From positions 96,001 to 160,000 of the IMG/VR virus record IMGVR_UViG_3300037483_000594: 64,000 nt of DNA, one strand, 5' to 3'. The notes beneath the pieces are model-generated. The model was not told the DNA's origin. It saw only the letters and a program-made list of their open reading frames with translations, and did no database searches. The translations under genes were made by a program, and so were the position numbers. Below are positions 15,896-21,732 of this stretch, piece after piece; within the stretch, counting starts at the first letter, position 1, and each line of letters opens with the position of its first letter. Origin of the DNA: a virus.

Positions 15896-17911
15896 ATGTC
15901 AGAGCTTTTTCGCGAGGTAGCGCTCCCCGTTCTTCAAAAAACAGCCGGGAACTTTCGGTTGTCGAACTCCGCAGACAGTTGGCCGGAAGAGATCATGAAC
16001 TCGCTGTTGGAAGCGCACGCGTACCTGGCCGCCATGGACCTGCGTATGGACATGCAGAACGTGGACGGAGAGCAGGGCTTTGGCCTTGGCGTGTTCTATG
16101 TGTCCCCCCCGCACGTGATGCCCAACCAGGGCCCCGGGACAGAGACCTACAGGCAGCGTGACGGGGTGCGCGCTCTCCGGATTCCGATTCTTGTCAACGA
16201 GTACAAGCTCTGCCCGTTCGACATCGTTATTGACGAGCGCGGTAAGGTCTACCCACTGAACGAAGAGCGTGTGCGGAGGTTGCTGTACAGACCGCAGCTC
16301 TTTGACGCCACCACGCAAAAGAACGAGCGCAGTGCCATCGATCGTGTCTTCATGCCGTTGCTGCGGCAGGGCAACCTTTCTGGGGTCAGTGACTTCGCTG
16401 CCGACTACATGAAGTACGGCTCGGCTTTGGTGTCGATGCTCCCCGGGGCCGACCACCGACAGATAGAGGCCACGGTGCGCGAGCTGCAGGACGACAGCAC
16501 CCTGCTGAAGGCGGCGAGCCATGACCCAGTGATCTCCCGACTTTTGGCGGTGGTGGGAGCGGCCGGGGTGATAACCCCCTCCGAGAAGACGAAGTTGGCC
16601 AGCGAGATGCTGCGCCCAAACGTGGTGCAGTACCGGCGGGTGGGGGACTTCTACAAGGTCAAGATGGCCAACACCACGTCCTTTGCCCCTGCGGAGGCCA
16701 CGCTGGACTACCCAACGCTCGTGGAGGACATCGGACGCGAGAACGCGCACGAGGTCAACTCCAAGGGCACCCTGACCCTCACCGCGGACCCGGTGGTGGA
16801 CGAGGTGCTGGAAGAGGCGGCCGGGTCCCTCGTCACCCAGTTCGGAGAGTGGCGCGTGAAAGGCCGGAACGGCGTGGAGCGTGTGGGGTGGGTCTTTCCG
16901 GAAGTGCGCTCTTTCACGGGAGTAAGGCTCCCGGTCAAGATTTTCAACAACGGGGACAGTTGCGCGATCCAGGAAGAGATCGCTGGGAGCTTCGTGGGCG
17001 CCGGGGTCAACCTTGTTCGTGGTGCGGTGAAGGGGCGGGGGCTCTTCTACCGCATTACCAACAGCGGGACCGTGGTGGCTTTTGAGCCTTGCGAGATCCA
17101 GAACGGGTACACGCAGAACAACCAGCTTGTCTACGAGCTCACTACCGTGACCGACCCCCTGGTTGTGATCACGGTGCGCCAGGTCCCCGAGCTGAAGTTG
17201 ATCACAAAGCTGCGGGACCGAGAGTACGGTATCCCGGTGGACGTGCGGTGGATGCCCCTTGGTGCCTCGCTGGTGGAGCTCGTATCCACCCCCGAGGCCT
17301 TCGCCAAGCTCAGCTCGGCCCGCACCGAGGTCCGATGCAGGGGCGGCCGGTGGTCTTTCCAAGGTGCTGCCGTGGAAAAGATCGCTGGCGTGATGGCCAC
17401 CCGGGACCTCGATGGACCAGATGCGATGTTCGTCTCCGCCTGCCTGGGGCTGAGCCCCAGTGCGTCCATAAAGGCGCTCGAGAAAGCGGCCACGGGGCGC
17501 TCTGTACGAATTTTCGGATGTAGGTCTTGCGTGCTCCCAGCCGAGCGTGTAAAAACGGCGAGTGCTGTAGCGCGACCGGTTGCACAACACTACGTCAACG
17601 TCATGCCCTCCTCCCGCTCCCTGATCAAGGAGGCGCTACACCTTTCCAAGTTTGCGTTGGACGAACTTGGAATTGACACCCTTGATCAGGTCCTGTCCCT
17701 GGGGTACCTCAGCCCGTCGAACGCCGCGAGTGCCGTGGAGCACCTTCCGAGTTTCGAGGACAGCGTGAACAGGCTCGCTGCCCTGCTGTTGGACGTGCGG
17801 CTGGGTGCCAAGATCGGGACCGACGACGGGGAGATCGCGGTAAAGACGGCCATGGACTCCTTCGAGAAGGTCATTGCCGGGCTGCGAAAACTGGTGCGTA
17901 CGAGGAACTGA
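15896..17911 (+). CDS. K-x-A-rich putative head protein
   Basis: 671 aa with about 9 K-x-A sites (LQKTAG, LLKAAS, TKLAS, VEKIAG, VKTAS...). Confidence 0.55.
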   Translation: MSELFREVALPVLQKTAGNFRLSNSADSWPEEIMNSLLEAHAYLAAMDLRMDMQNVDGEQGFGLGVFYVSPPHVMPNQGPGTETYRQRDGVRALRIPILVNEYKLCPFDIVIDERGKVYPLNEERVRRLLYRPQLFDATTQKNERSAIDRVFMPLLRQGNLSGVSDFAADYMKYGSALVSMLPGADHRQIEATVRELQDDSTLLKAASHDPVISRLLAVVGAAGVITPSEKTKLASEMLRPNVVQYRRVGDFYKVKMANTTSFAPAEATLDYPTLVEDIGRENAHEVNSKGTLTLTADPVVDEVLEEAAGSLVTQFGEWRVKGRNGVERVGWVFPEVRSFTGVRLPVKIFNNGDSCAIQEEIAGSFVGAGVNLVRGAVKGRGLFYRITNSGTVVAFEPCEIQNGYTQNNQLVYELTTVTDPLVVITVRQVPELKLITKLRDREYGIPVDVRWMPLGASLVELVSTPEAFAKLSSARTEVRCRGGRWSFQGAAVEKIAGVMATRDLDGPDAMFVSACLGLSPSASIKALEKAATGRSVRIFGCRSCVLPAERVKTASAVARPVAQHYVNVMPSSRSLIKEALHLSKFALDELGIDTLDQVLSLGYLSPSNAASAVEHLPSFEDSVNRLAALLLDVRLGAKIGTDDGEIAVKTAMDSFEKVIAGLRKLVRTRN

Positions 17912-19760: not shown

Positions 19761-19975
19761 TGCCATTCGTCTCGGAGAGTCAGCGCCGAAAGTTCTACGC
19801 CATGAAAGAGCGCGGAGAGGTCAGCGCAAAGGTCGTCAAGGAGTTCGAGAAGGGCTCCCCGGAGGACCTCCCGGAACGTGTGAAGACCGCTGCCTACTGC
19901 GAAGCCTACGGGCTCGAGCTGCTCAAGGGGGCAGCCCCCCGCTGGAAACAGCTTCTCCGTGGCAAGGAGATCTGA
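19757..19975 (+). CDS. small basic phage protein
   Basis: AAGGAGG RBS; MPFVSESQRRKFYAM..RGE..LPERVKTAA. Confidence 0.65.
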   Translation: MMPFVSESQRRKFYAMKERGEVSAKVVKEFEKGSPEDLPERVKTAAYCEAYGLELLKGAAPRWKQLLRGKEI

Positions 19976-20499
19976 TGCGCGCGCTTCTGGTGCAGGGGGG
20001 AGCACTCGCTGACACGCTCCTGAAGCTTGCGGAGAAGCCTCTCCGTGAGCGCGTAGAGGTGTACGCTCTCAAAGACGGAAAGGTCCTGGCCGGCATCTAT
20101 CCGGACGGGTCAGTGGGTGTGCCTGGGGGAGGGGTGTCCTCCGGGGAGTCCCCCGAGCACGCGGCAAAGCGGGAGTACAAGGAAGAGGCAGGCCTGACCG
20201 TCAAGAACCTGCAGCCCCTTCCCGTGCCCCCACTTGTTGAAAAGTGGGAGAAGCGGAAGGACCTCACCGACAAGGAGAAGGAGCGGCGCAAGGAGTTCTC
20301 CGGGTCGCGCACTCACTTCTACATAGCCGACCTTTCCGGAAAAGGCGGGAAGGCGGTGGACCCCTCCGCGTTGAAGAGGCTCGTTCCGCGTTCGGTAGCG
20401 GCTCTTGTCGACAAGCTGCAAGAGCAAGCCGACTCCGGGAAGAAGCGGGACAAGGTACGCCTCAAGGTACTCGAGACTGTCCAGGAGTTAACCAGCTAA
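19975..20499 (+). CDS. Nudix hydrolase
   Basis: Complete Nudix box GGGVSSGESPEHAAKREYKEEAGL. Confidence 0.9.
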   Translation: MRALLVQGGALADTLLKLAEKPLRERVEVYALKDGKVLAGIYPDGSVGVPGGGVSSGESPEHAAKREYKEEAGLTVKNLQPLPVPPLVEKWEKRKDLTDKEKERRKEFSGSRTHFYIADLSGKGGKAVDPSALKRLVPRSVAALVDKLQEQADSGKKRDKVRLKVLETVQELTS

Positions 20500-20772: not shown

Positions 20773-20803
20773 TAGCAAAAAGTGATGGGAGTTTCCCACC
20801 ACT
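20773..20803 (-). terminator. intrinsic terminator after the tRNA-like element
   Basis: AGTGGTGGG-AAAC-TCCCATCACT-TTTTGCTA. Confidence 0.6.
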
Positions 20804-20805
20804 AG

Positions 20806-20874
20806 AGCCGAGACCTGGGCTTGCACCAGGATCTCCTCCTCAACGGAGGCGGGTTACCTTAACCCCATCTCGGC
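20806..20874 (-). ncRNA. tRNA-like cloverleaf with a 5-nt anticodon loop
   Basis: GCCGAGA/TCTCGGC acceptor; D arm GGGT-TAAGGTA-ACCC; CCTCC-GTTGA-GGAGG; T arm CCTGG-TGCAAGC-CCAGG; no encoded CCA. Confidence 0.7.
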
Positions 20875-20904: not shown

Positions 20905-21222
20905 CTAGTACTTGGACAGAACCTGCCCCACGGTCCAGCGGGGGTCGTGGGACACGGCGACTACGTACCCCTGGCACTTGGGGTCGTAGATCGCCGTTGC
21001 GCCGAACCGGTGCACCAAGAAGTGCACCAGTACGGCGCAGACAGGGAGGCTCATGGGCCCGCTTATGCGGACCAAGCCCCCGCCGATCTCGAGACCCTTC
21101 AAGGTCTCGTTCTCGAGCTCCGCCACGATCTGGGCGTTCGTGGCGGTCTCCCCGAAACCCACCGTCAGGTCGGTTACCTGATCGGTGGAGTGCGGCTCCC
21201 GCCGCACATGGAAAAGTGACAT
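20905..21222 (-). CDS. csx3: Csx3 (Crn3)-like cyclic oligoadenylate ring nuclease
   Basis: 105 aa; VGFGE..GGGLVRISGPMSLPVCAVLVHFLVHRF..IYDPK..GYVVAVSHDP.W.VG matches the Csx3 pattern; AAGGAGGTG RBS. Confidence 0.8.
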   Translation of the reverse strand: MSLFHVRREPHSTDQVTDLTVGFGETATNAQIVAELENETLKGLEIGGGLVRISGPMSLPVCAVLVHFLVHRFGATAIYDPKCQGYVVAVSHDPRWTVGQVLSKY

Positions 21223-21233
21223 TGTCACCTCCT

Positions 21234-21289
21234 TGGCGCAGGTGAGGGGGAGTCGAACCCCCTGACGCCGAAGCGTCTCCAACACCTGC
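21234..21289 (-). ncRNA. mini tRNA-like element (56 nt)
   Basis: GCAGGTG/CACCTGC + G + CCA; canonical T arm GGGGG-TTCGACT-CCCCC; a single GACGC-TTCG-GCGTC hairpin replaces the D and anticodon arms. Confidence 0.7.
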
Positions 21290-21486
21290 CCCAGGGTCAC
21301 GCCTTACCTGGATGGCGCTTCACTTTTTGTTTCCATCCAGAGTGTGAAGTCTCTGGACCGGGCTACTGCTCCACCAAAGAGAGGGCCGGGACAAAGGGCG
21401 CCGCTTCGCGCCGATTCGGACACCTCCTGCGGACCATGCGCTGCCCGTACCACGCAGAAGGCTGCGAGGGTTTCTTTGTACTCAGA

Positions 21487-21606
21487 TCAGCGCTTCCGCG
21501 CTGAGCGGAAGAACCCATAGGGGTCCTTCCCGGTTACGCCCTCGATCACGATGGCGAGAAGAACGCACACAGCCACAAGGGCGATGATGAGGAACAATGT
21601 TGTCAC
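21487..21606 (-). CDS. 39-aa single-pass membrane peptide
   Basis: GGAGGTG RBS, GTG start; MTTLFLIIALVAVCVLLAIVIEGVTGKDPYGFFRSARKR. Confidence 0.6.
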   Translation of the reverse strand: MTTLFLIIALVAVCVLLAIVIEGVTGKDPYGFFRSARKR

Positions 21607-21619
21607 GCTACACCTCCAG

Positions 21620-21690
21620 TGCCCCTGGCAGGAATCGAACCTGCTCCTCCTGGGTGTAAACCAGGCGCTCGTCCTTCGAGCTACAGGGGC
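21620..21690 (-). tRNA. tRNA-Val(TAC)
   Basis: GCCCCTG/CAGGGGC acceptor, GCTC/GAGC D stem, CCTGG-TTTACAC-CCAGG, GCAGG-TTCGATT-CCTGC, discriminator A; CCA not encoded. Confidence 0.9.
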
Positions 21691-21717
21691 GGAGTAGGAC
21701 AGGGGGTGTCCTACATA

Positions 21718-21728
21718 TTCTTATAACA
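21718..21728 (-). promoter_or_regulatory. candidate promoter TGTTATAAGAA
   Basis: About 27 nt upstream of tRNA-Val; TTGATA lies 18 nt upstream of TATAAG. Confidence 0.6.
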
Positions 21729-21732
21729 GAAG

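Follow-up and report, generated by a model that had tools for sequence, protein, structure and literature searches.

Which kind of RNA lies directly in front of the csx3 gene of this phage, and what might it do there? In the window, by which we mean the whole stretch of 64,000 nt analysed here, a 56-nt element combines a tRNA acceptor stem, a T arm and one UUCG hairpin. The original prediction saw in it a mini-tRNA that is either charged by a host synthetase, with seryl-tRNA synthetase (SerRS) as the favoured candidate, or acts in cis as a processing element controlling csx3 translation. The sequence as read there matches the reverse complement of 21234-21289 base for base, and sequence and RNAfold agree on a canonical T loop, an encoded CCA and no anticodon. 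The CCA is also joined to the ribosome-binding site as described, since the Shine-Dalgarno (SD) sequence starts at the very next base (the 3' flank after the CCA reads AGGAGGTG-ACA-ATG). The element and the gene behind it are composed as follows.

21234..21289, (-) strand: the 56-nt mini-tRNA (sequence and RNAfold)
21289-21283, (-) strand: 5' strand of the acceptor stem, GCAGGTG
21282-21278, (-) strand: linker UUGGA
21277-21264, (-) strand: UUCG hairpin, GACGC-UUCG-GCGUC
21263-21245, (-) strand: 6-bp T arm, AGGGGG-TTCGACT-CCCCCT
21244-21238, (-) strand: 3' strand of the acceptor stem, CACCTGC
21237, (-) strand: discriminator base G73
21236-21234, (-) strand: encoded CCA
21226..21233, (-) strand: SD of csx3, AGGAGGUG
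20905..21222, (-) strand: csx3, Crn3-type ring nuclease of 105 aa (Pfam Cas_csx3, PF09620)

A three-way junction is both the minimum free energy (MFE) and the centroid structure calculated by RNAfold. It consists of a 7-bp acceptor stem, a 5-bp cUUCGg hairpin and a 6-bp T stem, which stacks flush onto the acceptor stem and carries the T loop UUCGACU. As the T stem has 6 bp, the acceptor/T stack comes to 13 bp instead of the canonical 12. All of the 18 pairs (18/18) are Watson-Crick pairs, and neither a mismatch nor a G-U pair occurs. The folding energy is -30.2 kcal/mol (z = -3.4), and only 1 of 200 shuffles folded equally well. In a context of 141 nt the fold is kept (z = -3.6). Chance occurrence was assessed on the 170-kb genome after first-order Markov shuffling. 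A loose descriptor, which asked for an acceptor of 7 bp with G-U pairs permitted, a T stem of 5 bp, a TTCRANY loop and a 5' strand no more than 40 nt away, gave 0.13 matches per shuffled genome. When only Watson-Crick pairs were accepted, 1 match was obtained in 400 shuffled genomes, and with the CCA in addition there were 0 in 400, compared to 1 in the real genome. The shape of the mini-tRNA is non-random, far beyond chance.

With canonical tRNAs the element shares the 7-bp acceptor stem, the UUCRANY T loop, the discriminator and the CCA. However, its T stem has 6 instead of 5 bp, and it contains neither a D arm nor a 7-nt anticodon loop. ARAGORN, applied to the window and to the genome, did not call the mini-tRNA and reported tRNA-Val as the sole tRNA, and its tmRNA mode returned nothing. 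With the Rfam tRNA model (RF00005, E<=10) tRNA-Val was matched and the mini-tRNA was not. The Rfam search recommended in the original prediction did return a best match, the selenocysteine tRNA (tRNA-Sec, RF01852), but its score of 28.5 bits stays below the gathering score of 47 (E = 0.008), and 35 model positions are skipped in the alignment. The likeness to tRNA-Sec includes the 13-bp acceptor/T stack, G73, the UUCGACU T loop and a hairpin resembling an extra arm. In contrast to tRNA-Sec, the mini-tRNA lacks both a D arm and a UCA anticodon arm, and its stack is built from 7+6 and not from 8+5 bp. The tRNA-like domain (TLD) of tmRNA is characterized by G3:U70 and A73, which confer alanine identity and precede the CCA, and by a D-loop analogue. 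TLD-only ('CDS-less') tmRNAs occur in mycobacteriophage DS6A and in some organelles; like the mini-tRNA they have no anticodon, end in CCA and can be phage-encoded. The mini-tRNA differs from tmRNA by A3:U70 and G73 and has no D-loop analogue. It is a genuine tRNA-derived acceptor/T-arm minihelix outside the tRNA, tRNA-Sec and tmRNA families, and it cannot decode. Further identities were considered and rejected. A hidden 7-nt anticodon loop is not available, as the UUCG loop grows to no more than 6 nt when its closing C-G pair is opened. For a D-armless decoder of the mitochondrial type, an arm of 4-5 bp would be too short to reach from the decoding centre to the peptidyl-transferase centre. 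An attP fragment was dismissed because the 5' acceptor strand is also present.

The mini-tRNA is part of a putative transcription unit on the (-) strand, which is arranged in the order promoter-like motif, leader hairpin, tRNA-Val, SD and peptide ORF, spacer, mini-tRNA, SD and csx3, hairpin, aberrant cloverleaf and terminator. The features not listed above are the following.

21718..21729, (-) strand: promoter-like motif CTGTTATAAGAA, putative start of the unit (noticed by its recurrence; promoter function presumed)
21718-21729, ~22175 and ~4228 of the window and 92700 of the genome, (-) strand: AT-rich GTTATAAGAA sites
21694..21714, (-) strand: leader hairpin GUAGGACA-CCCCC-UGUCCUAC, just 5' of tRNA-Val (sequence; inverted-repeat detection)
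21619..21690, (-) strand: tRNA-Val(UAC) (ARAGORN; Rfam tRNA, 64.2 bits)
21487..21606, (-) strand: ORF of a 39-aa hydrophobic (membrane) peptide with GTG start, SD GGAGGTG at 21611-21617
21290..21486, (-) strand: 197-nt spacer separating peptide ORF and mini-tRNA
20806..20874, (-) strand: aberrant cloverleaf (descriptor match; MFE in context, z = -5.0)
20781..20803, (-) strand: intrinsic-terminator-like hairpin closing the unit, with TTTTT behind its 10-bp stem

The 12-mer CTGTTATAAGAA has a second copy at ~22175, ahead of a 137-aa ORF. The sequence GTTATAAGAA occurs 4 times in the 170-kb genome (60% GC), always on the (-) strand and always upstream of genes. It is a candidate promoter for the fused beta/beta' RNA polymerase of the phage, an enzyme type that is encoded by several members of the phage family among those fetched with gene tables. 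A search for a sigma-70-type promoter found none. The tRNA-Val(UAC) is the only canonical tRNA of the phage. It is without an encoded CCA and borders at its 3' end on the SD GGAGGUG of the 39-aa ORF, which is probably coding to judge by this SD and its hydrophobic sequence. A structured non-coding RNA in the 197-nt spacer was considered and rejected (z = -0.75; 39 of 200 shuffles fold as well; no Rfam match). The distance between the mini-tRNA and tRNA-Val is 330 nt. Downstream of csx3, a further hairpin is followed by the aberrant cloverleaf, which is 69 nt long and located 360 nt from the mini-tRNA. Its acceptor stem is Thr-like (GCCGAGA/UCUCGGC), a D arm is present, the anticodon loop has 5 nt (GUUGA), and the T loop UGCAAGC is not of the canonical type; the discriminator is U73, and a CCA is absent. 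Its pairs are Watson-Crick throughout (21/21), and it was called neither by ARAGORN nor by Rfam. Three tRNA-type folds punctuate this one putative transcript, and two of them end 0-3 nt from the next SD. Since the mini-tRNA belongs to such a unit, one would naturally expect it to be processed by tRNA enzymes. A NUDIX hydrolase gene (window 19975-20499, (+) strand, Pfam E = 9.6e-11) converges on the csx3 unit.

The identification of the downstream gene as csx3 was confirmed by Pfam (31.1 bits against a cut-off of 21, E = 2.2e-7) and by its homologues, 226 of which were found at E<=1e-3 with an identity of up to 52%, several in phage-like contexts. From its sequence the product is a candidate anti-CRISPR ring nuclease. 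The closest homologue (L086) is found in a phage-like context together with SSB, HNH and NADAR genes. Another close homologue (L088, 2502-3830 and 5001-5300) is located 1.2 kb from a gene for a CCA-adding enzyme (PolyA_pol and HD) on a 6.5-kb contig. In the predicted fold, the SD of the phage gene and the G of its AUG are paired with codons 2-5, GGAGGUGAC-AAU-GUCACUUUUCC (window 21190-21233, (-) strand), leaving the A and the U of the start codon in the loop of the hairpin. This structure may function as a translational brake of csx3 that is independent of the mini-tRNA. In five modelled processing states, including unprocessed RNA, RNase P-cut RNA and RNA cut after the CCA, the predicted probability for the SD to be unpaired is 0.15-0.17. 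It is constant because the SD is held by the separate hairpin with codons 2-5. The proposed control of csx3 translation by the mini-tRNA is not supported by this model, in which the processing state makes no difference.

The virus record from which the window was taken comprises 170,135 bp with 60% GC and is estimated to be 94% complete. Its large terminase shows ~25% identity to terminases of cultured phages and 42-60% identity to the terminases of uncultured phages that form a large family, the most complete records of which have a size of 168-197 kb. Neither a CCA-adding enzyme nor a class-II aminoacyl-tRNA synthetase core nor RtcB was found to be encoded by the phage. Therefore, only host tRNA enzymes can act on the mini-tRNA.

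Our leading interpretation, which we put forward tentatively, is that the mini-tRNA represents a tRNA-derived processing signal comparable to the t-elements of plant mitochondria. T-elements are tRNA-like structures which direct cleavage by RNase P or RNase Z and thus lead to mRNA ends (Forner et al., 2007, PMC1920247). The motif GGTTCRANYCC together with an acceptor stem was used to find them, and their ends fall together with mRNA ends that have been mapped (PMC1920247). In the mini-tRNA, GGTTCGACTCC fits GGTTCRANYCC, and 4 nt separate the end of the acceptor stem from the SD of csx3. As in t-elements, a non-canonical and non-decoding tRNA-like fold of T arm and acceptor is placed inside a longer transcript beside an mRNA. 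In contrast, t-elements are organellar and their ends were mapped by experiment, whereas the mini-tRNA is phage-borne and known from sequence. It is also far more compact, with 56 nt and no D or anticodon arm, and its CCA is encoded.

According to this interpretation, a tRNA-derived minihelix with an acceptor of the Gly/Asn type, which would have lost the D arm and the anticodon loop, is presumably co-transcribed with tRNA-Val, the small peptide gene, csx3 and the anticodon-defective cloverleaf. Host tRNA-processing enzymes would recognise it inside the polycistronic RNA. A stem-loop minihelix with a 3' CCA is a minimal substrate of RNase P, and this enzyme would cut between 21290 and 21289, by which the upstream RNA would be parted from csx3. 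In Bacillus subtilis, CCA is an anti-determinant for RNase Z. Cleavage of the RNase Z type at the 3' side would be disfavoured because the CCA is encoded, and the base-paired minihelix may then remain on the csx3 mRNA, whose 5' end it would protect, or be set free as a stable RNA of 56 nt with a CCA end. The transcription of the unit, any cleavage and any effect on the expression of csx3 are what we infer.

A processing signal of this kind is consistent with the exact structure and its perfect Watson-Crick pairing, which are far beyond chance, with the presence of the T-arm motif next to an acceptor stem, and with the promoter-to-terminator layout in which two tRNA-type folds stand 0-3 nt from the next SD. 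It also fits a phage that was found without the tRNA enzymes searched for, so that only host enzymes can act. On the other hand, N(-1) of the mini-tRNA is G, and the leader UGG (-4..-2) is able to pair with the CCA across a G-G mismatch, both of which are suboptimal for bacterial RNase P. The equal predicted accessibility of the SD in every processing state offers no translational pay-off in silico. Moreover, a simple hairpin would suffice for processing or stabilisation, which leaves the T loop, the UUCG arm and the retention of the CCA unexplained.

Two other known systems are similar to the mini-tRNA. MALAT1-type modules such as mascRNA are tRNA-like folds in a long transcript, where a cut by RNase P is expected, a small CCA-ended RNA arises and the end of the neighbour is defined. 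These are eukaryotic and form a full cloverleaf to which the CCA is added, whereas the CCA of the mini-tRNA is encoded and its neighbour is a downstream mRNA. Synthetic acceptor/T minihelices, which serve as substrates of RNase P, the CCA-adding enzyme, EF-Tu, some synthetases and FaRel2, have the same architecture with discriminator and CCA. Compared to them, the mini-tRNA is natural and genome-encoded, it has an additional UUCG side hairpin and a 5-nt linker, which create the three-way junction, and its stack measures 13 instead of 12 bp. In the way it would work, the mini-tRNA comes closest to a t-element or to a naturally occurring counterpart of the laboratory minihelix.

The distribution of the element is narrow. 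The same phage was identified in a second JGI metagenome (L090), where 1 mismatch in 1844 bp is located inside csx3 and the mini-tRNA is identical, and also in a Logan assembly with matching gene order. Samples with this phage are JGI 3300037424 and those of the study behind SRR12684493. When the 841-nt region was compared by blastn with 50,697 records of cultured phages, tRNA-Val alone was matched, namely to tRNA-Arg genes of Gordonia phages. The exact 3' half of the mini-tRNA gave 0 matches in IMG/VR. A csx3-based search for the locus in IMG/VR found none, and the word-based protein search returned the query alone. Upstream of the three closest csx3 homologues (P0122, P0123 and P0124; 47-52% identity) there is neither a tRNA nor a minihelix. 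The terminase relatives were scanned at nine assembly loci and 80 IMG/VR loci with ARAGORN, the descriptor and a covariance model (R1) of the mini-tRNA. No homologue was found at these loci, and the best non-self matches were two unrelated minis which had been chosen by their common acceptor stem. Model R1 was also applied to the whole records of 47 relatives, 10 of which are >=90% complete, and nothing was found below E = 0.18. This absence from 47 relatives, from 80 terminase neighbourhoods and from the upstream regions of the three csx3 homologues argues against the processing signal. So does the variability among relatives of the island in which it lies, the stretch from a conserved 306-aa gene to the terminase gene. 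Conservation is confined to near-identical copies of the same phage, which comes close to the deleted tRNA unique to one genome that the original prediction had set against its own reading. Because the mini-tRNA is limited to one phage lineage, there is no covariation and no proof of selection. The element is thus a real, clean structure in a suggestive context, from a singleton lineage.

The narrow distribution suits the first alternative, which we consider possible but somewhat unlikely. In this case the mini-tRNA would be the neutral relic of a Gly- or Asn-like tRNA gene with internal deletions in a lineage losing its tRNAs, maybe still clipped by RNase P but unselected. The number of tRNA genes in the phage family varies widely, with 33 and 27 at the upper end and 5, 2 and 1 at the lower (G054 = L177, G061 = L178-179, G043, G004), which shows that gain and loss of tRNAs are ongoing and that tRNAs are a rapidly changing accessory of these phages. 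Further odd or truncated pieces resembling tRNAs are present in the tRNA clusters of relatives, and the aberrant cloverleaf provides a second defective tRNA-like fold at a distance of 360 nt. In a pattern scan of metagenomes for minis with the GCAGGUG acceptor, three matches were obtained, two of which are unrelated truncated tRNAs and likewise compatible with a relic. The third match, in DNA of 70% GC, looks like chance and was rejected. The positions of the two truncated tRNAs and of the odd genes in relatives are given below.

L094 2048-2098, (-) strand: unrelated anticodon-less mini of 51 nt with GCAGGUG/CACCUGC, beside tRNA-Met
L077 3042-3098, (-) strand, equal to L093 47-103, (+) strand: unrelated mini of 57 nt with GCAGGUG/CACCUGC and a 6-bp T stem, from an AT-rich phage
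L148 8066-8142 and 8155-8223, both (+) strand: odd tRNA-like genes beside the terminase gene
L163 12637-12704, (+) strand, and 17126-17198, 17204-17315 and 17314-17398, all (-) strand: odd tRNA-like genes beside the terminase gene

Among the tRNA-like genes of L148 and L163, three share the 9-nt anticodon loop NGUAAUGAC, in one the loop has 6 nt, and another combines a 4-base 'anticodon' (ggag) with an encoded ACCA. An additional RNA of 112 nt is composed of acceptor and T arm and ends in ACCA. However, decay should give mismatches, and the pairs of mini-tRNA and cloverleaf taken together are all of the Watson-Crick type (39/39). The way from a 72-nt tRNA to the mini-tRNA needs several separate deletions, each of which would have to leave a perfect helix, the cUUCGg hairpin and flush junctions. 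The CCA is present in the mini-tRNA but absent from the functional tRNA-Val, which is also difficult to reconcile with a relic. The identity of the two sampled copies over the element points in the same direction but says little at an overall difference of 1/1844.

In IMG/VR, 66 of the 76 matches to GCAGGUG/CACCUGC are tRNA-Gly genes, and two tRNA-Asn genes also have G73. Two members of the phage family contain tRNA-Gly genes with the GCAGGUG acceptor. When the mini-tRNA was aligned to the tRNA-Gly and tRNA-Thr genes of relatives, similarity was seen in the acceptor stems only, so that the parent tRNA cannot be named. The second alternative is a decoy, which appears unlikely to us. The processed 56-nt CCA-ended RNA would mimic the part of tRNA that is read by defence enzymes attacking the CCA end. 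Proposed targets are toxSAS pyrophosphokinases such as FaRel2 and CapRel, the MenT/AbiEii nucleotidyltransferases and Cas12a3, for which it would compete with host tRNAs while decoding stays undisturbed. The mini-tRNA and the Thr-type cloverleaf could then be purpose-built non-decoding decoys that form an anti-defence cassette with Csx3, an extension that we regard as doubtful. FaRel2 selects tRNA-Gly and tRNA-Thr via G1-C72, C2-G71, G4-C69 and R5-Y68 (bioRxiv 10.1101/2024.07.05.602228). A synthetic tRNA-Gly minihelix is efficiently modified by this enzyme (bioRxiv 10.1101/2024.07.05.602228).

By sequence match, GCAGGUG/CACCUGC and the CCA of the mini-tRNA correspond to the FaRel2 determinants. 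All four are present in the mini-tRNA and also in the cloverleaf (GCCGAGA) but not in tRNA-Val (GCCCCUG), and they occur in only 7 of 64 tRNAs (11%) of related phages, mostly for Gly, Thr and Leu. In line with a decoy, exactly the acceptor, the T arm and the CCA are retained, and the mini-tRNA shares its putative transcript with a candidate anti-CRISPR ring nuclease. However, the match of the determinants was noticed post hoc and follows automatically from an ancestry of the tRNA-Gly/Thr type, and therefore serves as a lead rather than as evidence of a function. To compete, a decoy would have to attain the abundance of a tRNA, and release of its CCA 3' end would leave csx3 without a leader 5' of the SD. 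In addition, the mini-tRNA has G73 where tRNA-Gly has U73, and the element is not conserved in relatives.

Charging of the mini-tRNA and a switch at the SD are both less likely than a relic or a decoy. As a chargeable mimic, the mini-tRNA would be aminoacylated by a host synthetase, and the charged minihelix would engage EF-Tu or another user; we consider this very improbable. Minihelices are weak substrates of several synthetases. G73, A3:U70 and the 5-bp hairpin beside the T stem, which resembles an extra arm, agree with the SerRS favoured earlier. A pattern scan of 185k genomes for this arm gave at least 120 matches, mostly outside tRNAs, with one tRNA-Ser among the matches listed. This tRNA-Ser(GCU), from a Parcubacteria MAG (L295), has an extra arm, T loop and G73 identical to those of the mini-tRNA, a small point toward serine. 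Nevertheless, a serine identity is not supported, since the acceptor is of the phage tRNA-Gly type and the pair 2:71 is C2:G71 in place of the G2:C71 of E. coli tRNA-Ser. There is also no tRNA core that could orient the arm. For an acceptor that looks Gly- or Asn-like, G73 does not suit GlyRS, and recognition by AsnRS depends on the anticodon. A class-II synthetase core was not found in the phage, the 13-bp stack is atypical of EF-Tu ligands, and conservation is again missing. Least likely of all is a structural switch in which UCACCU of the acceptor 3' strand would pair with AGGUGA of the SD and gate csx3 translation until folding or processing resolves it. These 6 bp could form in principle, and GCAGGUG, the 5' strand of the acceptor, is similar to the SD GGAGGUG. 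However, the tRNA-like fold (-30 kcal/mol) dominates, and the SD, with the same predicted accessibility in all five states, is taken by the downstream hairpin.

In published work, acceptor/T-arm minihelices appear almost exclusively as synthetic model substrates, and our literature search found no paper on phage-encoded anticodon-less minihelices. The mini-tRNA is natural and genomically encoded. With its perfect helices, the cUUCGg hairpin, the encoded CCA and its place in a putative unit with a candidate anti-CRISPR ring nuclease, it is a clean example of such an RNA. If it were a true decoy for immunity that targets CCA ends, it would make up a new class of anti-defence RNAs, a form of RNA-based counter-defence that has so far gone undescribed. 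If the mini-tRNA is only a processing signal, as we tentatively prefer, it would extend the idea of the t-element from plant mitochondria to phages.
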